Source: a virus
Virus record (IMG/VR): IMGVR_UViG_3300027509_000002
Span: 1-64,000 of that record
DNA length: 64,000 bases
Strand: one strand, 5' to 3'
The notes below the pieces were generated by a model. The model saw nothing but the letters and a program-made list of their open reading frames with translations. It was not told the DNA's origin and did no database searches. Below are positions 3,644 through 52,222 of the stretch, piece by piece. A program made the position numbers and the translations under genes. Each line of letters opens with the position of its first letter. Within the stretch, counting starts at the first letter, position 1.

Positions 3644-3648
3644 TTTAC

Positions 3649-3657
3649 TATATTTAT
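3649..3657 (+). promoter_or_regulatory. promoter-like TATATTTAT box
   Basis: One instance of the recurrent TAT(A/T)TTTAT 9-mer, 15 nt upstream of ATG 3672. Confidence 0.3.
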
Positions 3658-3671
3658 ATAATATAGAAACA

Positions 3672-26817: not shown

Positions 26818-27131
26818 TGACACCAGAAGAATTCTATTATAGAGATAAGGGCATGATGAGGCTATTGTTAGCTTTATTTGATATGGATGAAGATGATCAT
26901 GATTGTTTACAGGAAGGGTGTAGACATATAGACGATGCTACTCCAAGTGAACTAGATTCTTTACTTAGAGAACATGATTATTTACATAAATTCTCAGATC
27001 CAGAAACTACAGAGTATTTATCGAATTGTAGCTTACCTGTATTAGAAAAGGTAAGGGTTATTTTAGAAAAAAATGAAAGTTTTTTAGCATGTGCCGTTGT
27101 TAGGGATCTTATTAAAAAAGAAAACACATGA
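26817..27131 (+). CDS. hypothetical acidic protein between recA and the sigma factor
   Basis: ORF track. Overlaps both neighbours (ATGA-type coupling). Confidence 0.5.
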   Translation: MTPEEFYYRDKGMMRLLLALFDMDEDDHDCLQEGCRHIDDATPSELDSLLREHDYLHKFSDPETTEYLSNCSLPVLEKVRVILEKNESFLACAVVRDLIKKENT

Positions 27132-31697: not shown

Positions 31698-32645
31698 ATG
31701 TCTAGTATCTTAAATCCAGATCAAATCAATGAATTGTTGTCTATTATAGAAAGACAAAACATTGTTATGTTTTCCAACAAGTTTGGCAAAGATTTTTTAA
31801 ATCAAGAGCAACAACTAATGCTAAATGCCATGGGTGTAGATTTAGAAAATCAATACGATGCTACAAAAGATGTCGCTAAGATGTCTTTTCATTTGGGTAT
31901 GTTAAGTGAAGTAATAAAAGATACCGATTTAGAAAACCTGAACTTTGAGCACTTAAAGGAATATATCTCATCAGGTAAAAATATTCCATTAAACAAGGAA
32001 CAGCAGTTTGCACTAAAGAGTATTAAAAACCAATATTTAGGAGACATAAAGGCTAATGGTAACAGAATATTCTCTGACATTAACAATGTACTGGTGAATG
32101 CTGAAAAAGAAAATAGAGATGCTTACGAGAAAATAATACGAGATGAAATAGAGCAGGGTTTTTTAGATAAGAAAACTGTTTCTGAAATTGCACGTGATTT
32201 AGCACGTATGACAGGTGATTGGAATCGTAACTTTAGAAGAATGGTGGATTTTATCATGCATACTGCATACTCAGAGGGCAGGGCAGAGTATTTAAGAATG
32301 GAATACGGAGACGATGTGTTAGTGTGGGTACGTGTTTTTAATGGAGCTTGTAAGATCTGTAATAAGCTATATAAGAAGCCGAGAACAGGAGAGCCTAAAT
32401 TATTTAAGTTGTCTGAATTGAGAGCCAATGGAAATAATATAGGGTTTAAGCAAAAGGATTGGAAAGAGGTTGTGCCACCAATGCATCCACATTGTAGATG
32501 CTTATTAGAAAGATATGACGGTAAGTATAAGTGGAATAAAAAAACAAAGGATTTTACAGACGAAAACGAGAATTGGAAACCGCAACGCACAATAGATAGG
32601 CCAAAAGCCACTATTACTATTGGGGATGTAACTTATAAAGTATAG
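31698..32645 (+). CDS. MuF / SPP1 gp7-like minor head (morphogenesis) protein
   Basis: The C-terminal signature VVPPMHPHCRCLLERY is typical of the Mu F family. It lies downstream of portal. Confidence 0.75.
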   Translation: MSSILNPDQINELLSIIERQNIVMFSNKFGKDFLNQEQQLMLNAMGVDLENQYDATKDVAKMSFHLGMLSEVIKDTDLENLNFEHLKEYISSGKNIPLNKEQQFALKSIKNQYLGDIKANGNRIFSDINNVLVNAEKENRDAYEKIIRDEIEQGFLDKKTVSEIARDLARMTGDWNRNFRRMVDFIMHTAYSEGRAEYLRMEYGDDVLVWVRVFNGACKICNKLYKKPRTGEPKLFKLSELRANGNNIGFKQKDWKEVVPPMHPHCRCLLERYDGKYKWNKKTKDFTDENENWKPQRTIDRPKATITIGDVTYKV

Positions 32646-33202: not shown

Positions 33203-34759
33203 ATGAAGTTCAAACAGTTAAAGCCCGAAGACATTAAATTAATTAAAGACACTCATTCGGATAATACGTTACCGTGGGATGAAAGATTAAGGACATTGTG
33301 TGACAAATTTGGGGTCACTCAAAGATCTATTAGGAGGTGGACAAGCAAATTAGAGTTAACTAAGCCCACTGCAAAAGACCCAAAGCAGTTAAAAGATGCT
33401 AAGAAAAAGAAATTCAATAAAAAATCTCAGTTTTTTATTATTACTTGGGCACAAAACGATACACCTGTGCACGATTTGTTTTTTGATAACATTACAGCAT
33501 ATGCGAATCACTTAGAAGCCGAGATACATGTGATGGCAGGCAGATACAAAAACCCTACATCTGTGTTCTCTGATAAGAATCATGATTCTTGGGCAAACAG
33601 GCTCACACCCTATTTAGATGCCAGCAGACACAATGTACATAAATATATGTCTATTATGAGTGATGTTAAGATCCAGCCTACAGCAGTCAATCCACTTTCG
33701 GGTATGGCAGCAATGAGTAAGGAGAATTCGTGCATATATGGACACCCAAAGGTACAGATGGAGACCTTACCTGTTTTAAATGGCATGCACCCAAAAATGA
33801 TGTTCACCACTGGATCATGTACTGTAGCTAATTATACGGATTCAAAGGCAGGCAAAAAGGGAGAATTTTATCATGAGCTTGGATTTGTGGTTGTAGAAAT
33901 AAAAGATAAAAAGAGGTTCTTTGTTCGTCAAGTGGTAGCAGACAAGAAAACTGGTGCATTTACTGATTTACATTCATATGTTTCTGCTGGATCAATACAA
34001 AAAAACGAAGCGGTTGATGCACTTATAATGGGTGATTTGCACATTGGAGACCATGATCAGCAGGTAATAGATGCTACAGATTCTATTATTGCAGATTTAA
34101 AGCCAAAATATATTATTGCACATGATATACAAGACGGTAAGTCTGTGAATCCTCATGAACAGGAAGATCCATTTTTGAGATATAAAAGAGAAATTAGCAA
34201 TGATAACGATTTAGAAAAAGAAATTGAAGCAATGCTGGACTTCTTAGCGAAATATGAAGATCAAAATGTCGTGATCGTTAGATCTAATCATGACGATTTT
34301 ATAGATAGGTATCTAAAAAAGCAGGATTGGAAAAAAGACATTAAGAACTCTTTGTCTTATATGAAGTATGCTCAGCTATTATTAGAAGACAAAGCCCCAA
34401 AGGGTGTCGTGCCATATTTAATAGAGCAAAGATTTCCTCACTTTAAAACACTTGGTTTAAACGACTCTTTTAGGGTTAATGGATGGGAACTATCACAGCA
34501 TGGCCACATTGGCTCTAATGGAAGCAGAGGGGGTATTCAGCAGTTCAGGAAACTAAATACTAAAATGATTACTGGCCACACGCATTCAGCACAAAGAAAA
34601 GATGGTGTAGTAACGGTTGGAACTTCTACAAAATTAAGAGTAGGTTATAATAATGGAGCAAGTGGATGGATTCATGCTCATGGGCTATTGCATCCAGATG
34701 GTAAGGTACAGCACATTTTCTTCTTTGATGGAGAATATACTATGTTATCTGCCAATTAG
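33203..34759 (+). CDS. HTH plus calcineurin-like metallophosphoesterase
   Basis: N-terminal HTH-like CDKFGVTQRSIRRWTSK. C-terminal motifs LIMGDLHIGDHD, AHDIQDG, VRSNHDDF, SQHGHIG and ITGHTHS. Confidence 0.7.
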   Translation: MKFKQLKPEDIKLIKDTHSDNTLPWDERLRTLCDKFGVTQRSIRRWTSKLELTKPTAKDPKQLKDAKKKKFNKKSQFFIITWAQNDTPVHDLFFDNITAYANHLEAEIHVMAGRYKNPTSVFSDKNHDSWANRLTPYLDASRHNVHKYMSIMSDVKIQPTAVNPLSGMAAMSKENSCIYGHPKVQMETLPVLNGMHPKMMFTTGSCTVANYTDSKAGKKGEFYHELGFVVVEIKDKKRFFVRQVVADKKTGAFTDLHSYVSAGSIQKNEAVDALIMGDLHIGDHDQQVIDATDSIIADLKPKYIIAHDIQDGKSVNPHEQEDPFLRYKREISNDNDLEKEIEAMLDFLAKYEDQNVVIVRSNHDDFIDRYLKKQDWKKDIKNSLSYMKYAQLLLEDKAPKGVVPYLIEQRFPHFKTLGLNDSFRVNGWELSQHGHIGSNGSRGGIQQFRKLNTKMITGHTHSAQRKDGVVTVGTSTKLRVGYNNGASGWIHAHGLLHPDGKVQHIFFFDGEYTMLSAN

Positions 34760-36678: not shown

Positions 36679-37403
36679 CAATCTCTTTAACAACTATTAC
36701 TTTTTATAAGATTTATCAAAATCTCATATTCCAAAAGCCTTTTCATTATACTAGATTTGGGGACGGGGACTTAATGATTATGCATGGTAAGGATGAAAAA
36801 TTTCATGATGCATCAGAGGATTTAACAAGGGAGCTGATAGAGTCTTTTTTAATAGAAGATCCAAAATACTTGAAGGCGTTAAGTGGAAATTATGAGAATG
36901 AGGAACACATGTCTAAGGGTGTTTTTGCACCCTTTGATAACAAATCGGAGCTTGAAGATATGGCTTTTGCATTAAATCCTGAGAGAACCCAATACGAGAA
37001 CCCAATAGCCCTACATTATTTTTACTGCTTTGAATACCCATTGTTCCACAGAATGATGTTAAAGTACATTAAGCCAGCAAAAAAGATGTTTATTGGCTGT
37101 GTAGATAAAGAGGTTGCAGAAACATTATTTGGTAAGATTGATATTTATGTGCGAACAGCCCCATATAATTCCTACAAAGACATAGATAGTTGGTATTTGC
37201 AGGTATTGGACGGGATGCACGATGTCGATCTTATTTTACCCTGTACAGGCATATCTACAAGGGTGGTGCAAAAAAGAATATATGAAGCAGGCTTTAAGGG
37301 GTCATCAATAGATTTTGGAAGCATTATTGATAGTTTTGCTGGTTTTCCTACGCGTAAATGGATCAAAAAATTGGGTTTACATGAAAATAGAAGAGAAGGA
37401 TAA
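36675..37403 (+). CDS. possible GT-D (DUF1792-like) glycosyltransferase
   Basis: YTRFGDGDLMIMHG recalls the RFGDGE motif. This is weak evidence. The gene is embedded between GT genes. Confidence 0.3.
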   Translation: MTISLTTITFYKIYQNLIFQKPFHYTRFGDGDLMIMHGKDEKFHDASEDLTRELIESFLIEDPKYLKALSGNYENEEHMSKGVFAPFDNKSELEDMAFALNPERTQYENPIALHYFYCFEYPLFHRMMLKYIKPAKKMFIGCVDKEVAETLFGKIDIYVRTAPYNSYKDIDSWYLQVLDGMHDVDLILPCTGISTRVVQKRIYEAGFKGSSIDFGSIIDSFAGFPTRKWIKKLGLHENRREG

Positions 37404-38193
37404 AAAATCTGGTATTTATTGCATTAAAAATGTAATAAATGGAAAAATGTATATTGGCAGTGCCACATACATAAGGTCTAGGTGGAATTTACATAGAAAA
37501 CAATTAAAGGAGAATATGCATCATTCTAAAAAACTCCAAAGAGCATGGAAGAAGTATGGCGGTAAAAATTTTTTATTTGAAATATTAGAGTATTGCAAAA
37601 TTGATTTTTTAGTAGAAAGAGAGCAGTATTTTTTAAACAATATTTTAAAAGCAGATGAAGATTCAAGGTATTTTGAAGACTATGGATATAATATTTTGAG
37701 AACCGCTAATTCTCTTTTGGGATTTAAGCATTCAGATGAAACAAAAAAGAAGATGTCTGATGCAAAGATTGGCTATATTCCTTGGAATAAAGGTAAGTCT
37801 GGGTTTACAGTGTTAGATGACACAAAAAGAAAAATAAGCAGCACTTTGAAGGGATATGTAAGACCTTCATTTACCAAAGAACATAGGAAAAAACTTGCCG
37901 AGGCAAATAAAAATAGATCATGCGACAGAAGTGCTATGTCGAAAAAAGGGAATAAAAAACGAATGTCAAATCCCAAATTTCTGAAACATTTAGAAAACCT
38001 AGTGACTATGGCAACAAGTGCAAAACAAAAAATAGTTTGGAAAATTGATCCATTAACTAATAAAGTGGTGGAGCAATTTGATTCAATCAATGAAGCAGGA
38101 GAGTCTATTAATAAGGGTGCTCGCAAATATATACGAATTTCGTCTCGAAAAAAGACGACATATAAGGGGTTTTTATGGAAAATAGAGAGTTAG
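37381..38193 (+). CDS. GIY-YIG homing endonuclease with NUMOD3 repeats
   Basis: GIYCIKNVINGKMYIGSATYIRSRWNLHRKQL, then HSDETKKKMSDAKIGYIPWNKGKSG. Start at ATG 37381. Confidence 0.85.
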   Translation: MKIEEKDKKSGIYCIKNVINGKMYIGSATYIRSRWNLHRKQLKENMHHSKKLQRAWKKYGGKNFLFEILEYCKIDFLVEREQYFLNNILKADEDSRYFEDYGYNILRTANSLLGFKHSDETKKKMSDAKIGYIPWNKGKSGFTVLDDTKRKISSTLKGYVRPSFTKEHRKKLAEANKNRSCDRSAMSKKGNKKRMSNPKFLKHLENLVTMATSAKQKIVWKIDPLTNKVVEQFDSINEAGESINKGARKYIRISSRKKTTYKGFLWKIES

Positions 38194-39596: not shown

Positions 39597-41414
39597 ATGA
39601 GCAATATACTAGAATTTGGTGAAGAGTTTGATTATCAGGATATAAATGCCCCTAGACGGGAGCAAATGCAGAAGTCATTTATTCAAGATGAAGAGTCAAT
39701 TGAAAAGGGAAACGTGAAGGGTCATTGGAGAACCACTAAGTCTGGCAAAAAGGTGTTCGTGAAAGACCATAGCAATGCGAAAACCAAAAAAGATTCTTTA
39801 TCAGCAAAAGAAAAAAGAGGCATAGAAGAAAGAACAAAAGAGAGAGCTGAAAAAATTGATTATTTATCTGATTATGAAAAACAGCCTAAAGAAGTACAGG
39901 CTATCATGGAGACTCTATCAGAGGGTGATGAATATGGATCTGATTCACCAGATGGATTAGAAGCAGCTCAAAAGAAACTTGCTGCTATTGGCTGGAAAAT
40001 GGAATACGGATTAGATGGTGGAGTGCATACATTAGAGCCGATTCAAAACAAAAAAAAAGCACTGCCAAAATATGATCAGTCATCCATAGATCAGGCAGCT
40101 AAACATATTTCTAGTATGACGGGCACACGAGATTCTGCCGTGAAGGATTTTGCCTCTGAAAATAACATTGATATAATGAAATTGGCTACGTATGTGGGGT
40201 CAAAGAAAATAAAACCAATGGATTTTTCGACAGCTATTTCAGGAAACAAGGGTAATCCATATGCTACAAAAATTGTAGATGCACTCACCAAGTCTCATGA
40301 GGAAACCATCGAAAAGGGTGGCTCAAAGCAAATCACCATTACACACAACAAAACAGGAAAAGAATTAACTGGTAGGTGGGTAACAATTAATGGTTCACAC
40401 GTATTTGTTTCAGGCGGTGGAGTTGAAATAGGAGCTAAAGAGATTAAGAACTATAGTGAAGGAAAAGGTGGTTCAGGTAAGTCAGAAGACACTAAGGGTA
40501 AAAAGGCTCTAAAGGAAGTGCAGAATAAAGACGATTTTGCTAGAAAAAATATTTCTGGTGATGAGCGTAGAGCTTTAAAGTCTAAATACGATGGTATGAG
40601 CAAGGATGAGCGAGCAGGACGTACTTGGGAGGCTTATTTGAACGATGAGGCCAAGAAAAAAGGAGGCGATAGTTCAGAAAAGACATCAGAAAAGACATCA
40701 GGAAAGAAGTCGGAGATTGAGGCCGTTAAACCTGGTGAAACAGTAACAGAAAAAGACGTTAACCCAGTAGAAAAAAAAGACGAGTCTTATAAGAAAACCG
40801 ATAAGTGGAAGGCTTTACATTCAAATGACAAAAAATCTATAGAAGCAGCAAAGAATTTAAAACATCTTGATTTAGATAAACTCACGTCTTCTGAATATTC
40901 TGATTTACAGGAAATGTTTGTTATAGTGGAGATGGAAATGCCAAGATCAGAAATAACCGCAGGAGATGAGATTGCTTTTAGATTACAATATGCCAATGCC
41001 GATGAAAAATTTAATGGGGTTTCTTTAAAAGACATGTATAAACTAGATGCAGGCAACGCAGCCGATTCTAAAGCAATGAATAAATGGTCAGAGGCGAAAG
41101 AGAAGAAAGTAAACGATGCCCTAGATGCATTTGAGAAGGAGGTTCAGAAAGAAATAGATGAAAAAAATCAAGTGGTACAGCAGGTAGCTAAGGAGGGCGT
41201 GAATATGAAGAACATTGCATCCATTATCTCTTCATCAATAGCGATTGAATACTTCACAGAAGAACTCAATGAAGACATATTAAATCAGCTTACTGCATTA
41301 GACAAGAAATACAATAAGCCTGTAGATCCAAATCAGCAAAGAATGTTTAAATCAGTTCAATCTATCACAGATAGAATTGAAGGTATATCGGACAAACTTG
41401 ACAGCCTTATATAA
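39597..41414 (+). CDS. K/E-rich polyvalent-type virion protein 1 (605 aa)
   Basis: Low-complexity charged linkers. Two IEKG plus hairpin modules: GHWRTTKSGKKVFVKDH and GRWVTINGSHVFVSGG. Confidence 0.6.
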   Translation: MSNILEFGEEFDYQDINAPRREQMQKSFIQDEESIEKGNVKGHWRTTKSGKKVFVKDHSNAKTKKDSLSAKEKRGIEERTKERAEKIDYLSDYEKQPKEVQAIMETLSEGDEYGSDSPDGLEAAQKKLAAIGWKMEYGLDGGVHTLEPIQNKKKALPKYDQSSIDQAAKHISSMTGTRDSAVKDFASENNIDIMKLATYVGSKKIKPMDFSTAISGNKGNPYATKIVDALTKSHEETIEKGGSKQITITHNKTGKELTGRWVTINGSHVFVSGGGVEIGAKEIKNYSEGKGGSGKSEDTKGKKALKEVQNKDDFARKNISGDERRALKSKYDGMSKDERAGRTWEAYLNDEAKKKGGDSSEKTSEKTSGKKSEIEAVKPGETVTEKDVNPVEKKDESYKKTDKWKALHSNDKKSIEAAKNLKHLDLDKLTSSEYSDLQEMFVIVEMEMPRSEITAGDEIAFRLQYANADEKFNGVSLKDMYKLDAGNAADSKAMNKWSEAKEKKVNDALDAFEKEVQKEIDEKNQVVQQVAKEGVNMKNIASIISSSIAIEYFTEELNEDILNQLTALDKKYNKPVDPNQQRMFKSVQSITDRIEGISDKLDSLI

Positions 41415-42895
41415 TGGAGTTTTTTGACGACATAGAAAAAGCTCATGATCCCTCAAAAGGGGGTAAATTGGTTAAGAAAACCATTGTAGATAAAACTGGT
41501 AAAAGAACCACTAAGTGGGTCAGCAAGGAACAAGCATCTAAGATGCAGGGAGGCCAAAACACTGATCCAGAAGAAGCACCAGTAGATACTACTAAAATCA
41601 CTGACTTACCAAGTAACCACAAAGCTGCTTTAGAGGTTATTAAGGAGTCTATGGACAATGGGGACTTAGATCATGCCTTAGAGCTTGCCAATAAGCTACC
41701 AGACGAGGTAAAGGAATATATACCTAAAGAGGATTGGAAAAAGCTATTGACTAAACGTGAAGAAGAGTCGGAGCAGGATGCAGAAAATAAGTCAGAGCCT
41801 AAGTCAGAGACTAAGAAAGAGACTAAGCCGAAAAAAAAGAAAGATACAAAAGACGGTATTGAGTATGCAGATGAGGAAATAGTGGGGGCAATTGGCGATC
41901 AATCTAATGCCAAAATGGATGCAAAAATAGATGGAAAAGTAGTTGGTACAGTTTCTTATTCTATATATGAAGGCCAGCCATCAATCCAAATGATAGAGGT
42001 TGGTAAAGATCAAAAAAGAAAATCGATTGCCACTAACTTAATGAAAAATCTACAGAAGAAATATCCAGATGTAGAAATTGACTTGGGTGGCTTTATGACA
42101 GAGGAAGGATCTAATTTTATATCAAAGCTAGATCGAGAGTTTGTCCCCAATACAGCATATAGTGATACAGAAGAACTAATATCTCAGTTACAACAGCAAA
42201 GTGATAAAATCATTGAGGAAATTTCCAACAATAATTACACCAATGCTGATACATTAGATGACATTAGCGACACTATCTATGATTTGAAGGTGGAATTAGA
42301 GGAAGCTGAAAAAGGCAAATATATTATCAATACTAAGGATAAAAAAGTATTGACGGATAAAGAAATATTTGCCGAATATGACCAAGAAGTATCAAAATAT
42401 TCAGAAGATCAGGTTTATAGCTTAAATGAATATAGAGGTGCAGACTATAGAGATATTAATGCAGATCTTAGAGATGACAATGAACTTAATGAAGATAATC
42501 AGCGAATAGTGGACGACATAGATTCGGCCTTTATTCCATCAAAGCAAGATATGGTTCTTACTAGAGGCATTGCAGGTAAATCAGATGAAAAGATAAAGTT
42601 TTTTCTTGATTTAGAAGTAGGTGATGAATATACAGACAAGGGATATTCTTCAACTAGCGTAAGTGCTGATGCCGTAGATGGGTTTTTAGATAACATGTCA
42701 CCACAGTTTAGTAAATCTAAAATGGTTTTAACAATTGTGGCTAAAAAGGGTTCAAAAATTGTGCCTATGCAAAATGTGGGGTCTGAACACAGCAATGAAG
42801 AATATAAAAAGGAAAAGGAAATTTTATTACCAAGAAACAGCAAATTTAAGGTGTTATCTAAAACAAATGGTGCAATGAAAGTGCAGTTATTATGA
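41414..42895 (+). CDS. GNAT-like plus ADP-ribosyltransferase (R-S-ExE class) fusion protein
   Basis: The ART triad is LTRGI (R384), YSSTSV (STS 413-415) and EKEILLPRNSKF (E467-x-E469), preceded by YRGADYRDINADLR. The middle region VGTVSYSIY..KRKSIATNLMKNL is GNAT-like. Confidence 0.75.
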   Translation: MEFFDDIEKAHDPSKGGKLVKKTIVDKTGKRTTKWVSKEQASKMQGGQNTDPEEAPVDTTKITDLPSNHKAALEVIKESMDNGDLDHALELANKLPDEVKEYIPKEDWKKLLTKREEESEQDAENKSEPKSETKKETKPKKKKDTKDGIEYADEEIVGAIGDQSNAKMDAKIDGKVVGTVSYSIYEGQPSIQMIEVGKDQKRKSIATNLMKNLQKKYPDVEIDLGGFMTEEGSNFISKLDREFVPNTAYSDTEELISQLQQQSDKIIEEISNNNYTNADTLDDISDTIYDLKVELEEAEKGKYIINTKDKKVLTDKEIFAEYDQEVSKYSEDQVYSLNEYRGADYRDINADLRDDNELNEDNQRIVDDIDSAFIPSKQDMVLTRGIAGKSDEKIKFFLDLEVGDEYTDKGYSSTSVSADAVDGFLDNMSPQFSKSKMVLTIVAKKGSKIVPMQNVGSEHSNEEYKKEKEILLPRNSKFKVLSKTNGAMKVQLL

Positions 42896-45800
42896 AAGAC
42901 AGATTTATATCCCAAGACAGCAAAGGCTTAGAAAAAGAGATAAGTGTAAAAACAGAAGAGGTTGTTGAAAAAGGACATTCAAATACTAAACTGGTTAAGA
43001 AGCAGGTATTGGTGAATAGGAATGGCAAATCTTTTTATCAAACAGTATATGTTAACCCCGAAACAGGGGAGGAATCAGATACACCAAAAGGAGAAGAGAT
43101 TTCACCCGTTTTAAACGGTATGGAGATTATCAAGTATTCTGATAAAGCCATGCTTATAAAGGGCGATACTTATGTAAACAAAGAGGATTTAAGAGCAGTT
43201 AAAAAGGAAATCGGTGTTGGTAGCTGGAACGCTAAATTGCAGGGGTGGATATTTCCCATTAAATTCAAAGATACTATTCTTGGCTCTTTATGGTCAAAGC
43301 AAATGGAAAAGGGCAATGAAGAAAAAGCCAATGCCATAAAGAACCAAAAGAATGCATCACTTGAAACAGGTGATTTAGCCAGCATTGATGGCCAAGTTGG
43401 TGTTGTAGAAGAAGAAGTTTCAGATTCTAATGGGGTTAAATACAATATTTCTTTGGAGGATGGAAATAAATTGTCTGGCGTAAGCGAAAAAGCTATTTCT
43501 GTAGATCCTGAAACAGACGACAATAAGGTAGCCGAAGCCGTTAATGAAGCCAATGAATTTAATCGAAATAAGACGGCTAAAAAAATATATGGCATTAAAC
43601 CCATAGAAAATGTTCATGAATACACTCTTTCCGACTATTTAGGTTTACATGGAATAACTCAGGAAGAGATAGATAATGCAGTAGCTAAATTAAACTCAAA
43701 GAAGCCAGCTAAGAAACGATCTTCTTTTTCTGGATCATCTACTAGCACAAGATCAACGTCTGGTGAACCCAAAGAGCTCAGTAGGCAACAATTGATCAGC
43801 AAACTAATATATAAACACTATCAATCTGTACAGAAAGCGTTGAACGAAGGCAAATCGGTGTCAGAAAATGTATTGTCCATCTATCCAGATCTAACGCCAC
43901 AAGAGACAGAAGAAAAAGAAGAAGCGGTAGCGGAAGTACCAAAAGAAAAAGAAGCGATGTCAGAAGAGACAAAGCGTAAAATTTCTGAGGCATTGAAGGG
44001 TAAAAAAAGAGGGGGCAAAGAAGTAGAAGAGTGGAAAGAAAAACTATCTGCATTAGAAGTTGAGTTGGAGATCAATCAAAAGGAATTTTATGATTTTAAT
44101 AGGCCAGAATATTCCGATCCTGATTATAACGAACGAAATGTACAGCTTGGAGAGCTACGTACAAAAATAGACGGTCTTAAAAAGTCAATTCATGATACAA
44201 AAAATACCATAAAGGCATTAGAAAACGGAGGATCTATAATGTCTGTAGAAGATAAGTTGGGGAATATACATGATAATATTCCTAGCTTTATTGGAACTTC
44301 TACTGAGGATGTTATGTATGATGAAGATACTATACTAAATAAAGAAAAGCCAGATTTTATACCAGAAATGGACGAAGACTTGCTTGAAAGAGGGAAGTAT
44401 ATGCCAGATGCCATAAAAATCGGTGCTGATCAATATTTGGTGGCTACAAGAAAATATACTGAGAGTTCCAGAAAAACTGGTGAAAGAGGTTATGGAGAAT
44501 TCGTAAAAGAATATAATCCCAATGAACCAGGATATGCCGTTATGAGTCTTGATCAACTTGTTTTAACACAAGACTACTATATTACAAGAGCAAAGGCAAA
44601 AAATAAACAAAAAGCTGCCAAAGACAATCAAAGACAATTAGATCATTGGAATGGCTTATCTGATAAAAGAAAAGAGTATTATTTAATGCAGAGGGGACTA
44701 TATAGAAAACTATCTGCTAAAAAGAAAAAGGAAATTAGCTCAGAGCAATGGGATAGCATGTCATGGCAAGATAGAGAAGAGCATTATAAGCCAATTAAAA
44801 AATTTGGTGTAAAAAGAGTAAGTGTTTATTCTTCTGATAAAACAATGGCTAGTTCGTTTCACTCTATGTATGAAAGATTTACTGATCCAGAAGCAACTAG
44901 AGTTAATGGGGCTGGGAAAACTCTTAAAAGAGGCGAAGGTAGGGGATATGCTCATCCAATTGTTGTAAAAGAGTGGAATACTTTAAGAAATGATTTGGAG
45001 ATAAAATCCAACGATATTAGAATGTATCGTGAAGAATTGGGCGATGGTACTTTTTCAAAGGGAAGAGAAACAGCTTATGGAGACAGTGGTGTTTCCAATG
45101 CCCTTTTAGATTCTCATGGTCTTAAAGTAAAAAGGCAAAATGGAGATGAAATATCGCCAAAAGAAATAGATGAAATTAAGAGTTCTTGGGAAGATGTTAC
45201 GAAATCATTTGGCCCACTAAAAGAAAACGCCAAAGAATTTGGATTAAAAATATCTCATTCTGGGGATAAATTAATGCATGCCAGAAAAGCTCTTGGACTT
45301 TATACCCCAGCACACAAAGCAATTGGTGTAACTGCTAAGGTGGGTCAAGATCAATTTAGCTTTACCCTTGGTCATGAAGTCGCACACTGGATTGATAATT
45401 CATTAGGCAAAAAAGAGGGTAGAAGATTTGCATCTGATAATTTTGAGTCTACTGCTGGCCAAATAGCAAAGACACTTAGAGAAAAAATGAATGGTGAAAA
45501 GCCAAGTAAGTACTATAACAGTACTTGCGAGTGCTTTGCTAGAGCCTTAGAGCAATATCATGCTGTAGAAAGCGTTGGTGAAACTGCTGCTAGAGGCGAA
45601 TCAGGAAAGCCATATTTTGACATGGACTATTATGCATCTAAGTCGGTTTACGATAATGACATAAAGCCATTGATCGAGAAGTTTTTAGGTGAGAATAAAG
45701 AATTTTTTAAATCATTCGGAGCTATGGATATTACAAAAGGATTTATTAAGACATTAATGGATGCAGGATCAAAGTTTCTAGGATCTGATAAGAAAGAGAA

Positions 45801-46281
45801 AACTAAAGATTTTGCTGACTGTATTGTATTTAATAAAAAGGCAGAGGTGCTATTGTTGAAAAGAGCAGATAATGGGAAGTATTGGCTACCAGGTGGAAGC
45901 GTGGACACTGATGACACCAATCATGAAGTAGCAGCCTTTAGAGAGCTTGTAGAGGAAACCAATCTAATTCCAGACATACACGCCTTTAGTGATACAAAAG
46001 TGGCTAAGAATGGCGGTAATATTTACGTATATGTAGTAATGCCAGAAACAGAAATGGTAGTCTTAGATCCAGATGAACATACTGATTTTGGTTGGTATAA
46101 CATGTCAGAAATTGAAGATTTAGCTATTTTATTCGGATCTCATGATCTATTAAGAGAAATGGTAGGTAAGGCTAAGCACACTCTTTTTGACAGCGTTGCT
46201 CAGGCAGCATTTAACTCTGGACAAATAACAGAAGATGAGTACCTTAATGGTCTTAGTTTTCTAAAGAACGGACACCTATAG
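42892..46281 (+). CDS. 1129-aa polyvalent protein with HExxH metallopeptidase-like motif and C-terminal Nudix domain
   Basis: NUMOD3-like SEETKRKISEALKGKKRG. HEVAH at 45373-45387. Nudix box LPGGSVDTDDTNHEVAAFRELVEETNL starts at 45892. Confidence 0.7.
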   Translation: MKDRFISQDSKGLEKEISVKTEEVVEKGHSNTKLVKKQVLVNRNGKSFYQTVYVNPETGEESDTPKGEEISPVLNGMEIIKYSDKAMLIKGDTYVNKEDLRAVKKEIGVGSWNAKLQGWIFPIKFKDTILGSLWSKQMEKGNEEKANAIKNQKNASLETGDLASIDGQVGVVEEEVSDSNGVKYNISLEDGNKLSGVSEKAISVDPETDDNKVAEAVNEANEFNRNKTAKKIYGIKPIENVHEYTLSDYLGLHGITQEEIDNAVAKLNSKKPAKKRSSFSGSSTSTRSTSGEPKELSRQQLISKLIYKHYQSVQKALNEGKSVSENVLSIYPDLTPQETEEKEEAVAEVPKEKEAMSEETKRKISEALKGKKRGGKEVEEWKEKLSALEVELEINQKEFYDFNRPEYSDPDYNERNVQLGELRTKIDGLKKSIHDTKNTIKALENGGSIMSVEDKLGNIHDNIPSFIGTSTEDVMYDEDTILNKEKPDFIPEMDEDLLERGKYMPDAIKIGADQYLVATRKYTESSRKTGERGYGEFVKEYNPNEPGYAVMSLDQLVLTQDYYITRAKAKNKQKAAKDNQRQLDHWNGLSDKRKEYYLMQRGLYRKLSAKKKKEISSEQWDSMSWQDREEHYKPIKKFGVKRVSVYSSDKTMASSFHSMYERFTDPEATRVNGAGKTLKRGEGRGYAHPIVVKEWNTLRNDLEIKSNDIRMYREELGDGTFSKGRETAYGDSGVSNALLDSHGLKVKRQNGDEISPKEIDEIKSSWEDVTKSFGPLKENAKEFGLKISHSGDKLMHARKALGLYTPAHKAIGVTAKVGQDQFSFTLGHEVAHWIDNSLGKKEGRRFASDNFESTAGQIAKTLREKMNGEKPSKYYNSTCECFARALEQYHAVESVGETAARGESGKPYFDMDYYASKSVYDNDIKPLIEKFLGENKEFFKSFGAMDITKGFIKTLMDAGSKFLGSDKKEKTKDFADCIVFNKKAEVLLLKRADNGKYWLPGGSVDTDDTNHEVAAFRELVEETNLIPDIHAFSDTKVAKNGGNIYVYVVMPETEMVVLDPDEHTDFGWYNMSEIEDLAILFGSHDLLREMVGKAKHTLFDSVAQAAFNSGQITEDEYLNGLSFLKNGHL

Positions 46282-46333
46282 TATATAACACACTGTTTCC
46301 CAACAAGTTGTGTAAATAAGATATAATGTACAT

Positions 46334-46360
46334 GCATGTTCACGTGAGCGTGTCACATGC
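46334..46360 (+). other. GC-rich hairpin in an intergenic region
   Basis: GCATGT/ACATGC outer stem and CACG/CGTG inner stem with a 4-nt loop. No T tract follows. Confidence 0.5.
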
Positions 46361-46398
46361 CATATATAGTCTTTGTAATCGGTTAATAATGACTTAAC

Positions 46399-46407
46399 TA
46401 TTTTTAT
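46399..46407 (+). promoter_or_regulatory. promoter-like TATTTTTAT box
   Basis: 15 nt upstream of ATG 46422. Confidence 0.3.
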
Positions 46408-46421
46408 ACAAAGAAACTATT

Positions 46422-49019
46422 ATGGAATTCCTCAATTTTGATAAAGACAACAATACATTCTTATTCAAGAATGAATATGATCACATAATTAGAAAATCAG
46501 CAAGCCAAGTAATTGAGCAACATCCTGATTTAGCTATTGAGATCACAAAAAATATATTTGATTTTGTAGAAAAGGGTGCAAAAGCAAACGCTGGCGAAAT
46601 TAGAGAGCATGGTGGTGTAAAGATGCAAAAATTAGCATCTGGAAAATGGGCTAAGGTAGGTTCATCTAAGGGCAAATCAGATGCCAAGGGAAGCGAATCT
46701 ATCCAGAATGCCATCAATGTACGAGAAAAGGCTTTAAAGATGGCTAGAGATAGCGGTAACGAAGGCATTATTTCTAAACTATCTACGCAGTTAACGGATC
46801 TTAAAGCTCAATTGAAGGGTGCTAAAACTACTGTAGAGAAATCAGCAGAGCAGGATTTAGAAAAAGCTACATACAAAGATACTCCTGAAAATAGAAAGTT
46901 AGGTAGAGTTGGTAAAGAATGGGGTGGAAAGAAAGAAGGACAAAAAAACACTGATGGATCACAATCTAGTGGCAAGACCGTTAAAATATCTGAGAATTTA
47001 CGTTTGGAGGGCACACCAAATAAAGAGTTTGCCGAAGGAATTTTAAGTGCTCTTAGGTCATACCCAAAAGGGCATCATGCTAGGCCATTTATGCCAAATA
47101 AAGAATATGGTTCTGTTTATGGTGTAAAACTGACAACTCTTAAAGAAACGACCGAAAAAGATTTAGAAAGATTGGAGATTTTTGCTAGAAAAATATTGTC
47201 TGACGATCCCAATATAAAAGTTAAAAAATCAGACGATCAAGACATAGAGAAAGCACAGAAGTATATTAGACGAACTGGAACGCCAGGAAACTATAAGTAC
47301 GAATATGCTGATTCAAAATCAAATGTAAGAGGCCACAAAAATACTGTAGTAGAATCTGATGAAAATAAGATGAAAATCTTACAGGGTCAATTAGAAGAAG
47401 ATACTATCAAAAGAGCAAAGGCAAAAGAAGAGGGTAATTCTACCAAAGAAGCACATTTTGATCATGAAGTGAAAAGGCTTAGAAAAGAGATTGGAGAATT
47501 GAGAGCTAACGGTACAGACGAAAAAAAGGAATTAGAGGCACATAAGGAGAGCGATAAAAAGACTCCAAGCCCAGAAGCGGTCTTTAAGGAAGTATATGAC
47601 AAATATAACGCTAAGGATTATTTTGGGGAAAAGAGCCGCATAGAGTCAGCCGTTAAACAGTGGAAGTCTTTTCTTGAAAGAGGTGATGAAGGTGCAAAAA
47701 AATATACTAAAGAAGACGTAGTGCAGCATATGGAACGTGCCATTGCAGCCGAGGCAAAGCACACTTTTGATACACTAAAGACAGCTATTGATAGTAAAGA
47801 TATAAACAAGTTAAAATCAAGAGTTCGTTATGATCAGCCATATACAAAAGAGCTTTTCTCAAAATTAACAGGTATTAGTGTACCCAGCACAAATGCACAA
47901 ATTAATACCATGCTGGACCAATTTGCATCCGACAGTAAAAAAAAAATTGAAAAATCAGATAGCCAAGAAATAGAAAAGGCTCAAAAAAAAGGGTACTACA
48001 GAACCCTAAAAAGTGGCAAAAAAGTATATGTTAAGCCACATCAAGATTCGAGAACAAAGAAAGAGGAAAAGACATTTGTAATACGATCTAGGGTAAAGGA
48101 TGCCAACAATAAACTATTAGATGACGTGCATGTATCTGTGCAAGCCAACAGTGCACAGGAAGCAGAAGAAAAAGCAGCAGCTAAGCTAAGTGAAAATCCT
48201 GCATACCCTAAAGATGGCAGATTGGAATTAGTAGATGTAAATATTGCTGATTCAAAGAGTTTAGAGCAAAAAAGGGCTCAGGGTAAATTAGACTTACTAC
48301 GCAAAAGAATCACTAAAGAAGTTAAGAAGCTAGAACAAAAAGATCTATTGGATATAGAACGAAAAATGATAGAGAGCACAGTTAAAGAATGGCAGAATTG
48401 GGCAAAAGAGTATGAGAAAGCTGCCAATAGCACTCCACTTCCAATAAAGAATATGCCTGAGTTTATGAGCTATTTGAACAGCTTCTACGGTAAAGATGGT
48501 GTATATCCAAATAAAATGGGGGAAGATGTCAAAGAATCTGATGTGATTGATGCTATTAAATATGCTGCATCAAAAGGATATAATTTTGACAATGGTGACA
48601 GTATGGATCGTGAAACGGTTAGAGACATATTAACTGAGCGAAATCTGATTGATCCTAATTATGACAATAGCCATGCCAATGAAGAGAAAATAGTCGTTCC
48701 TGCTGATGAAGCACCGAAACAGCCAGACCATACAGTAGCAAAAACTATTTTACAGCAATTGGGTGGAAGTCAATTTACGGCTATGACAGGAGCAAAGAAC
48801 TTTGGAGCAGATGCAAATAAGTTAATGTTTAAAATAGCGAAAAATGCCAAAAACGTAACTCATGTTTCCATCACTTTAAACGGGAAAGATTTATATGACG
48901 TGAAATACATTAATGTTAGAGGATCTAATATAAAGACCATGAGCGAAAGCAATGATATTTATGCTGATATGTTAGTAAACGATTTTGAACAAAATACAGG
49001 AATGTACACAAGAATTTAA
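46422..49019 (+). CDS. K/E-rich polyvalent-type virion protein 4 (865 aa)
   Basis: Internal repeat KSD(D/S)Q(D/E)IEKAQK. The module GYYRTLKSGKKVYVKPHQDSRTKK matches the 39597 product. Confidence 0.6.
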   Translation: MEFLNFDKDNNTFLFKNEYDHIIRKSASQVIEQHPDLAIEITKNIFDFVEKGAKANAGEIREHGGVKMQKLASGKWAKVGSSKGKSDAKGSESIQNAINVREKALKMARDSGNEGIISKLSTQLTDLKAQLKGAKTTVEKSAEQDLEKATYKDTPENRKLGRVGKEWGGKKEGQKNTDGSQSSGKTVKISENLRLEGTPNKEFAEGILSALRSYPKGHHARPFMPNKEYGSVYGVKLTTLKETTEKDLERLEIFARKILSDDPNIKVKKSDDQDIEKAQKYIRRTGTPGNYKYEYADSKSNVRGHKNTVVESDENKMKILQGQLEEDTIKRAKAKEEGNSTKEAHFDHEVKRLRKEIGELRANGTDEKKELEAHKESDKKTPSPEAVFKEVYDKYNAKDYFGEKSRIESAVKQWKSFLERGDEGAKKYTKEDVVQHMERAIAAEAKHTFDTLKTAIDSKDINKLKSRVRYDQPYTKELFSKLTGISVPSTNAQINTMLDQFASDSKKKIEKSDSQEIEKAQKKGYYRTLKSGKKVYVKPHQDSRTKKEEKTFVIRSRVKDANNKLLDDVHVSVQANSAQEAEEKAAAKLSENPAYPKDGRLELVDVNIADSKSLEQKRAQGKLDLLRKRITKEVKKLEQKDLLDIERKMIESTVKEWQNWAKEYEKAANSTPLPIKNMPEFMSYLNSFYGKDGVYPNKMGEDVKESDVIDAIKYAASKGYNFDNGDSMDRETVRDILTERNLIDPNYDNSHANEEKIVVPADEAPKQPDHTVAKTILQQLGGSQFTAMTGAKNFGADANKLMFKIAKNAKNVTHVSITLNGKDLYDVKYINVRGSNIKTMSESNDIYADMLVNDFEQNTGMYTRI

Positions 49020-49029
49020 TATATATAAT

Positions 49030-50721
49030 ATGACACCAAAAAATAATTTTAAATTTTATATCAACGCTGATATATCCAAAGCCAAAAATGGCAAGGATAT
49101 GATCATTCAGGGTATCGCTTCTACATCTGCTAAAGATTCACAAGGCGAATTCCTAGATCCTAGAACATTTGATTTGAATGATTTTAACTGGATTAACTGG
49201 AATCACAAAGGAAAAGATGATCCATCTACAATTATAGGTGAACCAATACATGCAGAAGTCAATGAAAAAAATGAGCTCTTTATTAAGGGTCTATTATATG
49301 ACGATGTTCCAATGGCTAAGGCTACTTACAAATTAATGAAGGCATTACAGAAGTCACCAACTGGAAACAGGTTAGGGATGTCTGTAGAGGGTAGAGTAAT
49401 CGAAAGAGACTCTATGAACCCAGCTAAGATATTGAAATCAAAGATCACAGGCGTAGCGATATGCCCAGTGCCAGTAAACGGTGCTACATGGACTGAACTA
49501 ATCACTAAGGGATATACAGAAAATGAGACTCCGATATACGATATAGATCAATATGCAGATAAAGAGGTCGAAAAAGCGATGTCTATTGAAGGCACTACAG
49601 GAGCTTTAGAGAACGAAGGTATTGATCGTAAATTAGAACATGAATCGGTGGAGGGTACAAAGAAGAAAAAGAAGAAAAAGAACGGGGAAACGGTAGATTT
49701 AAAGGTGTTAACTAAATCGGAAGCCTATAAATCTATATTTAATTATTTTTATATCAACGATATAGCGAAAGCTAAACAAATTTATTCTTTAATAGAAAAC
49801 ATTAGTATTATGGACAAACAACAAATTACTAAAGAAACAATTGAAAAAGCACTTGAAATTATCAAGGTTGCTGATTCTGTAGTTTCTAGTAACGAGGATG
49901 CTACATCGGATGTAGTTGAAACATCAGAAGAGATAGAAACTACTGCCGAAGCTACGGAAGAAGTTGAAAAGTCTGAAACAGAAAACATTGAAAAAGGTGA
50001 AAAAACAAACGATGCACCTGACAATGTAGAAGAAAAAGAAGCGGTAGCTGAAAAAGATGAAGATTCAGAAGAAGAAGATGAAGATGTGGAAAAAAGCATC
50101 TATAAGTCGGCTTGCAATTATGCCAAAAAACTATTTAGTAAGGGCATGGATGAAGATGAAATCAAAAAGGCTATGAGTAAAGTATATTCTAAAGATGTAA
50201 CTACAAAGGCATGTGCTTCTGTAGATATGGGAGCAAACGCTGCTGCTAACATGGGAGGAATTACACCACAAGGTAGTATCAAAAAATCTGAAACCATCGA
50301 GTTAGAAAAAAGTTTTTCTGCTATGGCTGACAAATTTGAGAATCTTTCTAAATCTTTTGAAGAAAAATTTGATACAATCAAAAAATCTTATGACAATTTA
50401 TCAGAAGAGAATTCTACTTTAAAAAATAGAATCAAAGAAATTGAAAATACACCGACTGCACCAAAGTCTCTTATCTCTAAATCATGGGCTGAAAGGTTCG
50501 AGAGTAAAATAAAAGAGGGTGGTGATATAGAAAAGGGTGAAATCTATAGTTTAAGCAATAAACAATCAAGAGAGGATCTAATCAACAAGGCATTTGAAAT
50601 GGCTATTGAAAAAGGAGATGACGATCTTTCTCGAATCGTAAAAGGCTTAGAGGCCACAAAACAGATTGACGATAGAGGTCAGGCTAAATTAAAAGCGTTA
50701 GGAATCAACGTATTACCGTAA
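49030..50721 (+). CDS. prohead serine protease (HK97/S78-like) fused to an acidic scaffold-like domain
   Basis: The N-terminal IIQGIASTSAKDSQGE..NWNHKG..RLGMSVEGRV has a His/Ser layout like S78 proteases. The C-terminal half is E/D/K-rich coiled coil. Start at ATG 49030. Confidence 0.6.
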   Translation: MTPKNNFKFYINADISKAKNGKDMIIQGIASTSAKDSQGEFLDPRTFDLNDFNWINWNHKGKDDPSTIIGEPIHAEVNEKNELFIKGLLYDDVPMAKATYKLMKALQKSPTGNRLGMSVEGRVIERDSMNPAKILKSKITGVAICPVPVNGATWTELITKGYTENETPIYDIDQYADKEVEKAMSIEGTTGALENEGIDRKLEHESVEGTKKKKKKKNGETVDLKVLTKSEAYKSIFNYFYINDIAKAKQIYSLIENISIMDKQQITKETIEKALEIIKVADSVVSSNEDATSDVVETSEEIETTAEATEEVEKSETENIEKGEKTNDAPDNVEEKEAVAEKDEDSEEEDEDVEKSIYKSACNYAKKLFSKGMDEDEIKKAMSKVYSKDVTTKACASVDMGANAAANMGGITPQGSIKKSETIELEKSFSAMADKFENLSKSFEEKFDTIKKSYDNLSEENSTLKNRIKEIENTPTAPKSLISKSWAERFESKIKEGGDIEKGEIYSLSNKQSREDLINKAFEMAIEKGDDDLSRIVKGLEATKQIDDRGQAKLKALGINVLP

Positions 50722-50758: not shown

Positions 50759-52222
50759 ATGAACAACACTTTAGACGATATGCAAAACGGATTCGCTGGT
50801 GACGGTGGGCAAGATGCAGAGTACTTATTGAAAGCTATGCAAGCTGGTCACATCACAGGACGTGAAACCGCAAATCAGTCTTTAACGCAAGAGCCGTTAA
50901 AAGCTGAATCTTTAGAAAAGACATTGAAATTATTAGATCACAGAACAAGTGATTTAAAATTAATCAATGCAATGCCAAAAATGACTGCTTATAACACAGT
51001 TGAAGAATTTATTCAGTTAGAGTCTTATGGTAATCAACGTGGAGGTTTTTACGGGGAAGGAGAACTTTCTGATGTAGAAGATTCTAAGTATGTAAGACGT
51101 GCTGAAAAGATCAAGTACTTACAAGTAACTGGATCTGTAACTCTTCAAGCACAAATGGTGAAATCTTTTGTTCCAGCAATGGCTAAAGAGGTTTCTAACA
51201 AAGTAATGTGGATTCAGCGTAGAGCGAATACCTTTATCACTAAAGGAAACGAGAATATCGTTCCAGAAGAGTGGAATGGTTTATATGCACAGCATGCTTC
51301 TATTGGAACTGGTAGCGGTTTCTTATATAATAACCTTGATGCGTATTACGGATCAGAAGTTGTTGTAGATTTAAGAGGAAAGTCTCTTAAACAAGAGGAT
51401 GTAGAAGACGGAGCAGTAAGAGTAGATGCTAATTTTGGTATTCCAACTCACTTATTTGCTGCACCAGTTGTAATCTCTGCTTTAGCAAAAGATTATTACA
51501 ATGATCAGCGTATCTTAATGAACGGTGGTGGATATGACGGTGTTATTGGAACAGTTCCAAAGGCTATTTCTACTACTATGGGTGACATCACTCTAGGAAA
51601 CGATAAATTCATGGCTGCTGAGCCTGCTAAGTTATCATCTAATACTGCTACAAGTGTGAAAGCACCTGCTGCCCCTGTAGCTGATGCTTCACCTGCACTT
51701 GCTACTGATGGTTCATCTGTACTTGAAGCTGGTGAAGATGGCCCAGTATTTTATGCTGTGTCTGCCATCAATAGATATGGAGAGTCTGCATTAACAGTTC
51801 AAGGAGCTGCTGTAACTCTTACAGTTGGATCATCTGTAGATTTAGATTTCTCTGCTGGTGTAGGATCTGCATTCGCTGCAACTGCATTTAGAGTATATAG
51901 AACTAAAGTAAACGGTGCGAACACTGGTAAGTTTTACCCAATCTTTGAAGTATCTGCTGCTGAATTAGCTTCTGGCTATGATAGTGCTGCACCTGGTCTT
52001 GCAAGAGACAGACATAGATTACTTCCTGACTGTGAAACTGCATTCTTAGCTGAGATGACAGAAGAAGCAATGAGCTTTAAGCAACTTGCACCTGTATCTA
52101 AGTTAGACCTTGCTGTAGTTGGATTGAGTAGATCTTTTGTAGCATTCTTATTTGCAACGCCTCAGTTGTATGCACCTAAGAAAATGGTTAAGTTTGTAAA
52201 CGTTGGGAAAACTCTTAACTAG
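50759..52222 (+). CDS. major capsid protein (HK97-fold type)
   Basis: 487 aa, immediately after the protease/scaffold gene. Locally higher GC and Ala/Gly/Val-rich. A strong terminator follows. Confidence 0.75.
   Translation: MNNTLDDMQNGFAGDGGQDAEYLLKAMQAGHITGRETANQSLTQEPLKAESLEKTLKLLDHRTSDLKLINAMPKMTAYNTVEEFIQLESYGNQRGGFYGEGELSDVEDSKYVRRAEKIKYLQVTGSVTLQAQMVKSFVPAMAKEVSNKVMWIQRRANTFITKGNENIVPEEWNGLYAQHASIGTGSGFLYNNLDAYYGSEVVVDLRGKSLKQEDVEDGAVRVDANFGIPTHLFAAPVVISALAKDYYNDQRILMNGGGYDGVIGTVPKAISTTMGDITLGNDKFMAAEPAKLSSNTATSVKAPAAPVADASPALATDGSSVLEAGEDGPVFYAVSAINRYGESALTVQGAAVTLTVGSSVDLDFSAGVGSAFAATAFRVYRTKVNGANTGKFYPIFEVSAAELASGYDSAAPGLARDRHRLLPDCETAFLAEMTEEAMSFKQLAPVSKLDLAVVGLSRSFVAFLFATPQLYAPKKMVKFVNVGKTLN

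Follow-up and report, generated by a model that had tools for sequence, protein, structure and literature searches.

A phage head-block gene that joins a minimal GNAT module to an Alt/VIP2-type ADP-ribosyltransferase domain

The GNAT-ART gene and its domains

The window analyzed here is the whole of a 64,000-nucleotide stretch of viral DNA (positions 1 to 64,000 of IMG/VR record IMGVR_UViG_3300027509_000002). Our subject is one gene within it, at 41414 to 42895, whose product of 493 amino acids (aa) carries a GNAT-type acetyltransferase module followed by an ADP-ribosyltransferase (ART) domain. The features recognized in this GNAT-ART gene are as follows.

41414..42895, plus strand: whole gene, 493 aa, with ATG start and TGA stop (reading-frame check)
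41432..41521, plus strand: I-E-K-A motif (residues 7-10), then the basic motif DPSKGGKLVKKTIVDKTGKRTTKWV (residues 12-36); possible tag for packaging or processing
41606..41860, plus strand: helical adaptor segment (residues 65-113) and Lys/Glu-rich linker (residues 114-149), from alignment by eye and composition
41861..42160, plus strand: minimal GNAT core, residues 150-249, with beta1-beta4, alpha3, beta5, alpha4, and beta6 and without alpha1/alpha2 (Pfam, profile, AF2/Foldseek)
42014..42031, plus strand: acetyl-CoA pyrophosphate motif A, K201-R-K-S204-I-A206 (column counts, alignment)
42161..42331, plus strand: antiparallel helical hairpin and terminal beta strand, residues 250-306, completing the GNAT and kept in solo relatives of ~175 aa
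42374..42892, plus strand: R-S-ExE ART domain of the Alt/VIP2 family, residues 321-493 (Pfam, profile, AF2/Foldseek)
42563..42565, plus strand: catalytic Arg384 (Arg in 139 of 141 aligned domain instances)
42650..42658, plus strand: S413-T-S415 motif (Ser in 139 of 141 aligned domain instances)
42803..42820, plus strand: ARTT-loop region Y464-K-K-E467-K-E469 (ExE), aligned to EKE of VIP2

The start codon of the gene overlaps the stop codon of the upstream gene, which encodes a 605-aa protein (TAATG), and its stop codon overlaps the start of the downstream gene, which encodes a protein of 1129 aa (ATGA). Gene calls on five metagenome contigs (up to ~99 kb long), which come from at least three samples, give the identical 493-aa protein, so the gene is not an assembly artifact. 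A check of the sequence of 41414-42895 located every motif that an earlier, sequence-based note on this DNA had quoted: the GNAT-like stretch VGTVSYSIYEGQPSIQMIEVGKDQKRKSIATNLMKNL at residues 177-213, YRGADYRDINADLR at residues 340-353, LTRGI at residues 382-386, YSSTSV at residues 411-416, and EKEILLPRNSKF at residues 467-478, all at the positions it gave. Residues 65-149 match no family in Pfam and phrog profile searches; by eye, the helical segment within them (residues 65-113, a part of the GNAT-ART protein that the alignment omits) resembles the N termini of two small ART proteins, P0025 and P0029.

We are confident that the C-terminal domain is an Alt/VIP2-type R-S-ExE ADP-ribosyltransferase. 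The Pfam model ADPrib_exo_Tox (PF03496) matches residues 323-482 with 58.7 bits (E = 6.4e-16) against a gathering cutoff of 23.4, which is far above chance. When a family profile made from this domain and 18 small relatives is searched against the PDB, its best match is VIP2 (1qs2; E = 4.4e-27), with the Arg, STS, and ExE positions of the GNAT-ART protein aligned to those of VIP2, followed by Lmo0066, CPILE/BECa, Certhrax, CDTa, iota Ia, C2-I, ExoS/T, and C3. The AF2 model of residues 150-493 has a mean pLDDT of 93.4, and a Foldseek search of the PDB gives a probability of 1.00 for 1qs2, 8za7, 2c8g, 4h0v, and 2j3z, the top folds being those of VIP2, Lmo0066, C3, iota, and C2. Among the predicted viral structures of BFVD, the best fold matches are phage ARTs; in many of these, the ART is joined to a protein of the minor-capsid/MuF, head-morphogenesis, or portal type, and T4-like "RNA polymerase ADP-ribosylase" proteins are also among them (E of ~1e-8).

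The GNAT-ART protein retains every ART catalytic residue that is conserved across the 141 related domain instances. In addition to the Arg and Ser columns listed above, the first Glu of the ExE motif (E467-K-E469, 42812-42820) is present in 131/141 and the second in 141/141, and a Tyr stands three residues ahead of the first Glu (Y-x-x-E-x-E), as in iota-type ARTT loops. With its catalytic residues intact and with profile and fold matches to solved enzymes, the domain looks catalytically competent. ExE-type ARTs use arginine as the acceptor, and by analogy the ExE form of this domain points to arginine. The complete R-S-ExE domain claimed in the earlier note, with R384, STS, and E467/E469 in order, is thus borne out by both the Pfam check that it had proposed and the VIP2 profile match. 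Its word "toxin" is apt for the fold family but not for the likely role, since the genomic context favors a virion-delivered effector of the T4 Alt/polyvalent kind.

Residues 150-306 (~155 aa) form a complete but minimal GNAT module, an assignment that is solid because the Pfam scores of homologues, the matches of the family profile, and a fold search that returns only GNATs agree. Taken by itself, the GNAT-ART protein matches Acetyltransf_1 marginally (23.7 bits, E = 6e-5, cutoff 20.7) in the HMM (hidden Markov model) check that the earlier note had suggested; its relatives individually score 26-61 bits on Pfam GNAT models, and the best Acetyltransf_1 E value among 20 large GNAT-bearing proteins is 7e-30. 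The AF2 model of residues 150-320 (pLDDT of 94.7) has the order beta1-beta2-beta3-beta4-alpha3-beta5-alpha4-beta6, two long antiparallel helices, and beta7; the helical hairpin thus forms an insertion that separates beta6 from beta7. All top PDB matches of this model in Foldseek are GNATs (~85 columns, root mean square deviation of ~2.5 Å), among them the RimI-like CBU0801, GCN5/PCAF, RibT, and aminoglycoside acetyltransferases. A search of the PDB with the GNAT family profile finds RibT first (E = 1.2e-6) and then 6IUF (E = 1.4e-4), which is the anti-CRISPR acetyltransferase AcrVA5 (PMC11021501); the latter match covers the beta3-beta4-motif A core over 34 residues only, and for this reason specific kinship to AcrVA5 was retained as a lead and not adopted. 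The earlier note had recognized the acetyl-CoA-binding beta4-alpha3 region of a GNAT; the domain is indeed there, though what is present is not just that region but the whole minimal module. In motif A, for which the general consensus is Q/R-x-x-G-x-G/A and the consensus of this family R-R-K/Q-G-I-A/G, Arg202 (near-invariant in the family, 89/96) and the final Ala206 are kept. Position 204 aside, nearly all family-consensus residues are kept (G178, Y182, Y185, P189, R202, A206, T207, L213, Q214, P218, E221, G225, T229, and G232).

Head block and N-terminal motif

The window is part of a phage of ~99 kb that encodes a DNA polymerase, a DnaB-like helicase, SbcCD, a UvsX-like recombinase, a large terminase, and a sigma factor (27128-28003; phrog_351, E = 5e-38), and that is a lytic myovirus, probably with a host in the Bacteroidota. 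Judged by its capsid protein, the nearest cultured relative is Chryseobacterium phage MA9V-3 (58.6% identity), and the next closest capsid proteins are those of Bacteroides and SPO1-like Bacillus phages. A scan of the phage sequence found no tRNA genes. The head block that surrounds the GNAT-ART gene contains the following features.

29181..30776, plus strand: portal gene (portal phrogs, E = 3e-44)
31698..32645, plus strand: MuF/SPP1 gp7-like minor head protein gene (phrog_115 and phrog_595, E = 2e-8 to 3.5e-6)
33203..34759, directly after the MuF-like gene: 518-aa "DNA transfer protein" with a calcineurin-like metallophosphoesterase region (phrog_1745, E = 4e-153)
37315..38193, amid glycosyltransferase/Stealth-like genes of the head block: GIY-YIG/NUMOD3 homing-endonuclease-like open reading frame, overlapping both neighbors
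39597..41414, plus strand: 605-aa Lys/Glu-rich protein with two IEKG plus beta-hairpin motifs, the upstream neighbor
42892..46281, plus strand: 1129-aa polyvalent-type protein with an N-terminal VEKG and basic motif (phrog_22901, E = 5e-61)
46422..49019, plus strand: 865-aa protein with four [IVL]EK[AG] motifs, just ahead of the prohead protease
48985..50721, plus strand: prohead protease/scaffold-like gene (phrog_1028, E = 1.5e-31)
50759..52222, plus strand: major capsid protein gene (phrog_752, E = 4.5e-61), which closes the head block

The order of the block is portal, MuF-like, DNA transfer, glycosyltransferase-like with GIY-YIG, M15 peptidase (a gene at 38952, upstream of the 605-aa gene), four Lys/Glu-rich proteins (605, 493, 1129, and 865 aa), protease, and capsid. 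These phrog matches uphold the head-module location proposed in the earlier note, the gene lying between the portal and MuF-like genes on one side and the prohead protease and major capsid genes on the other; the MuF-like gene also has a weak Phage_Mu_F match in Pfam (E = 1.4e-3). The 605-aa upstream protein is probably another head-internal protein, and the 518-aa metallophosphoesterase-type protein may be another virion-delivered enzyme. The 1129-aa protein contains HEVAH (45373-45387) inside its phrog_22901 match and, toward its C terminus, a NUDIX domain (residues 975-1075, 45814-46116; Pfam E = 4.6e-13), along with weak DUF6782 and LPD1 matches in Pfam, and this combination of HExxH and NUDIX is typical of polyvalent proteins. 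It also has a NUMOD3-like motif at residues 356-372. We do not regard the 1129-aa protein as an orthologue of either gp273 of Tunturiibacter phage Tunturi_5 or the 1459-aa protein of MA9V-3, to neither of which it shows significant BLASTP similarity.

The proteins of this part of the block have in common a short motif, [IVL]-E-K-[AG], with 13 copies in the five consecutive proteins encoded at 39597-50721, against 1.1 expected from shuffles, and a single copy in the other 52 open reading frames of the window. In the proteins of 605, 493, 1129, and 865 aa, short basic motifs that resemble beta hairpins come after it (GGKLVKK..GK..KWV; G.WVTI.G.HVF; GEIR.H..G..K...GKW). In the GNAT-ART protein, the basic motif is DPSKGGKLVKKTIVDKTGKRTTKWV (41447-41521), variants of which recur at the N termini of three small ART proteins (P0020, P0046, and P0150), and a similar motif stands at the C terminus of a NUDIX protein (P0002, residues 274-300). 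The pattern of ~25 aa common to the GNAT-ART protein, these three phage-type ARTs, and the NUDIX protein, DPS.GGKLVKK.I.DK.GK...KW, looks like a portable tag carried by varied effector domains related to NAD or ADP-ribose (ADPr). As far as sequence can tell, [IVL]EK[AG] and the basic motif together may be a prohead-protease site, a capsid-targeting, DNA-binding, or packaging tag, or both. The more specific proposal of a conserved protease site was set aside, as the motif receives no backing from MA9V-3.

Recurrence of the cassette

An exhaustive search of 1.84 billion representative proteins returned 1,230 relatives, the best 150 of which we examined with domain HMMs. Of the best 150, 96 match the GNAT region (residues ~154-310) and 59 match the ART. 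The GNAT group consists chiefly of solo proteins of ~170-190 aa and also holds 21 proteins of 1,600-3,340 aa, and these large proteins carry ART-PolyVal, LPD38, LPD23, PBECR5, SNF2, and other domains. Pfam, applied to the 20 largest GNAT-bearing proteins, finds ART-PolyVal in 11, LPD38 in 7, and ADPrib_exo_Tox and NUDIX in 2 each. Outside this set, gp273 of Tunturi_5 (PP885688.1, locus L004, 4186-8655) is a 1489-aa protein with NUDIX, ART-PolyVal, and the same mini-GNAT; it is labeled only "MutT/NUDIX hydrolase," and its gene adjoins that of a minor head protein.

We mapped the GNAT, the R-S-E ART, and the H-Y-D ART-PolyVal with domain HMMs in 23 proteins, namely, the 21 representatives of at least 1,600 aa, Tunturi_5 gp273, and the window protein. 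By our tally from this domain map, 13 of the 23 have an ART immediately next to the mini-GNAT. An H-Y-D ART-PolyVal begins 80-105 residues past the GNAT core, beyond the hairpin, in six proteins (P0084, P0111, P0068, P0064, P0078, and P0149), and the distance from the GNAT to a following R-S-E ART is 72 residues for the window protein, 90 for P0057, 29 for P0016, and 241 for P0120 (the protein upstream of P0120 is not similar to the MuF-like protein of the window). The ART lies directly ahead of the GNAT in Tunturi_5 gp273, P0066, and P0033, that of P0033 being of the R-S-E type. P0016 (1880 aa; loci L009/L010) has six R-S-E ARTs together with the mini-GNAT and is encoded in the terminase-portal-capsid module of an unrelated phage. 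A further protein, P0003 (3254 aa), has nine tandem R-S-E (ADPrib_exo_Tox) ART domains; multicopy ART arrays have been described in the literature only for the H-Y-D ART clade. The same mini-GNAT and hairpin also occur at 3094-4400 of a human fecal contig (MT837363.1, locus L005), inside a long open reading frame that, as we read its translation, appears to run on into an N6-adenine-methyltransferase-like region and would correspond to a polyvalent protein of the conjugative-element type.

Less exhaustive searches returned little of this family. A word-indexed homologue search with the whole protein found only the protein itself and the NUDIX protein that shares its N-terminal tag; the same search found nothing with the GNAT region and 13 small proteins with the GNAT alignment. 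With tblastn, three GenBank phage records were matched by the whole protein and two by the GNAT, and four plasmid records were matched, while IMG/VR scans yielded no relative having the GNAT-ART protein.

Proposed role and comparison with known systems

The explanation that we favor, and hold to be fairly probable, is that the GNAT-ART protein is a late-made, head-packaged, and injected two-enzyme effector of the polyvalent kind that modifies the host. It would be synthesized late, alongside the head proteins; incorporated into the capsid, possibly by way of its N-terminal tag and with trimming by the prohead protease; and ejected with the DNA into the next host. There, the R-S-ExE domain would use NAD+ to mono-ADP-ribosylate a host protein, most likely on arginine, and the minimal RimI-like GNAT would transfer an acetyl group from acetyl-CoA to an amino group on a host protein. 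Most likely, the targets would be the transcription apparatus or defense and translation proteins. Precedents for such targets are T4 Alt and phiKMV Rac, both of which act on RNA polymerase alpha, and AcrVA5, which acts on Cas12a. The phage has a sigma factor of its own and so relies on the RNA polymerase core of the host for some or all of its transcription; RNA polymerase is for that reason a plausible target of the ART and the GNAT.

Several observations weigh against this explanation. The GNAT-ART protein has no MuF or portal fusion, and we infer its packaging from the position of the gene and an uncharacterized N-terminal motif. In the nearest cultured relative, MA9V-3, the same slot is occupied by an unrelated 1459-aa protein and a solo NUDIX, with neither an ART nor a GNAT (so that the slot holds variable or accessory cargo), and [IVL]EK[AG] is not enriched in the head proteins of that phage. 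ExE ARTs can act mainly as NAD+ glycohydrolases. Finally, the GNAT has Ser at position 204, where 91/96 relatives have Gly, which together with the missing alpha1/alpha2 may leave acetyl-CoA binding poor or nil.

This last point leads to an alternative that we regard as unlikely, in which only the ART is enzymatic and the GNAT, unable to bind acetyl-CoA by virtue of G204S, serves in dimerization, target docking, or regulation of the ART. Apart from the substitution itself, it would account for the absence of the alpha1/alpha2 substrate arm and the presence of a long coiled hairpin, for a Pfam score barely above threshold when the GNAT-ART protein is taken alone, and for the constancy with which the GNAT stays beside the ART whichever the ART clade, as would fit an accessory role; Lys or Arg occupies position 204 in a few other family members. 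Against it, the family consensus is otherwise almost entirely preserved, and most relatives are solo proteins of ~175 aa that have no ART to regulate. Moreover, GNATs bind the pyrophosphate through backbone amides, such that a Ser may be tolerated. A further idea is that GNAT and ART are not independent effectors but depend on each other as a functional pair: the cassette has been built with two ART clades, H-Y-D and R-S-E, and selection would then act on the combination of GNAT and ART. We think it doubtful as well; if true, both modifications may strike the same host protein (e.g., RNA polymerase alpha), or, alternatively, the GNAT may gate or target the ART.

Two further alternatives concern where and on what the protein acts. 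It might not be packaged at all but act in the producing cell as a late intracellular modifier, like T4 ModA/ModB; the lack of a MuF/portal fusion and of any capsid-targeting domain recognizable in Pfam and phrog searches would agree with this, as would the fact that the packaging inference comes from gene order only. We judge it quite improbable, given that the gene lies inside the portal-to-capsid block, is translationally coupled to polyvalent-type neighbors, and shares its N-terminal motif with these neighbors, with other small phage ARTs, and with a NUDIX protein. Of phage ARTs in general, ~44% are found in contexts suggestive of head packaging, meaning a fusion to a head protein, neighboring packaging or morphogenesis genes, or a T4-like context (PMC9503650). 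More improbable still is that the ART and GNAT work with the neighboring NUDIX on small molecules derived from NAD+ or on nucleic acids, for instance as a counterdefense directed at immune signals. A single polypeptide, Tunturi_5 gp273, does unite NUDIX, ART, and this GNAT, and in the window the three are spread over two neighboring genes that overlap; the NUDIX protein P0002 likewise bears the GGKLVKK tag; and head-packaged Nudix and ART proteins have been proposed to counter NAD+/ADPr signaling (PMC9503650). However, NUDIX is present in only 2 of the 20 large proteins with this GNAT, and the nearest GNAT folds are those of protein acetyltransferases, RimI-like and GCN5. The structurally solved ExE R-S-E ARTs, including those in our list of matches, are mainly protein-arginine transferases.

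If the favored explanation, a packaged and injected effector, is correct, the GNAT-ART protein belongs with the polyvalent proteins, which are multidomain effectors injected with phage or plasmid DNA and count GNATs among their protein-modifying domains (Iyer et al. 2017, PMC5512222). It combines two disparate biochemical domains, GNAT and ART, in one polypeptide; it is encoded among virion packaging and morphogenesis genes; and it shares a domain with larger polyvalent proteins, the same GNAT occurring in the 21 proteins of 1,600-3,340 aa. In phage polyvalent proteins, GNATs of this family usually have an ART beside them, normally of the H-Y-D ART-PolyVal type (Iyer, Burroughs, Anand, de Souza, Aravind 2017, PMC5512222), and host RNA polymerase has been proposed as the target of the ART and GNAT of polyvalent proteins, in the manner of T4 Alt and phiKMV Rac (Iyer et al. 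2021, PMC7824862). Like the window protein, these modules have the ART-flanked GNAT in one polypeptide, often with a hairpin spacer of ~70-105 aa, and like the window gene, they lie in a virion module, with NUDIX and zincin-type HExxH partners nearby; the GNAT of Tunturi_5 gp273, a member of the same mini-GNAT family, is 36.5% identical to that of the window. They differ in the ART, which belongs to the H-Y-D ART-PolyVal clade rather than to the R-S-E Alt/VIP2 clade, and the window protein differs from them in being small (493 aa, with two catalytic domains) and in having Ser for Gly in motif A.

T4 Alt is a head-packaged, injected R-S-E ART that acts on Arg265 of RNA polymerase alpha. It belongs to the same ART clade as the window protein and is likewise encoded by a late, head-associated gene, and both phages use the host RNA polymerase with a sigma factor of their own; unlike the window protein, however, Alt has no GNAT, and no sequence similarity between the two was detected outside the ART domain. 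Phages and prophages also have fusions of an ART to MuF/SPP1 gp7 or to a portal protein, in which an Alt/VIP2-type ART is delivered via the capsid, as in the fusion of Phage_Mu_F and ADPrib_exo_Tox recognized by Pfam in Bacillus phage S4-3 and in many of the BFVD matches; a fusion to MuF or a gene position beside head genes is frequent among Alt/VIP2 ARTs (Iyer et al. 2022, PMC9503650). In the window, by contrast, the MuF-like protein is a separate gene product, and the ART is fused instead to the GNAT and an uncharacterized N-terminal region.

The VIP2, C2-I, iota Ia, CDTa, and C3 toxins have the same catalytic fold and the same R, S-T-S, and E-x-E motifs as the ART of the window, but the protein should not be considered a binary actin-ADP-ribosylating toxin: Pfam detects a single ART stretch and no N-terminal pseudo-ART adaptor, the N-terminal half being made up of tag, linker, and GNAT. 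None of the neighbors scanned, which are head or polyvalent proteins of the phage or else unassigned, is recognizable as a binding or translocation component, and the target of the ART is likely bacterial rather than eukaryotic actin or Rho. AcrVA5 (6IUF, which acetylates Cas12a) and phiKMV Rac are minimal GNATs that mobile elements use against a host protein; unlike the window protein, both are solo proteins without the helical hairpin or an ART.

The earlier note knew of no characterized equivalent of such a fusion. This holds for experiment, as we found no experimental study of a GNAT-ART fusion in the literature searched, but an equivalent was already known from the comparative genomics of Iyer et al., and the GNAT-ART protein does not reveal a new kind of system. 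Injected phage proteins work before phage genes are expressed, and, T4 Alt aside, only a handful have been investigated. The 493-aa protein is a compact form of a cassette that is otherwise found inside polyvalent proteins of 1,600-3,300 aa or in the 1,489-aa Tunturi_5 gp273; being compact, it should be easier to express and could serve as a model for the function of the cassette and for possible cooperation of the two modifications. That Alt/VIP2-type ARTs take part in polyvalent-type architectures, with up to nine R-S-E ARTs in tandem, widens the published picture. The GNAT-ART fusion itself, then, is a known design, and what is new is an ART of the R-S-E clade in the ART slot of the cassette, within a protein of unusually small size.

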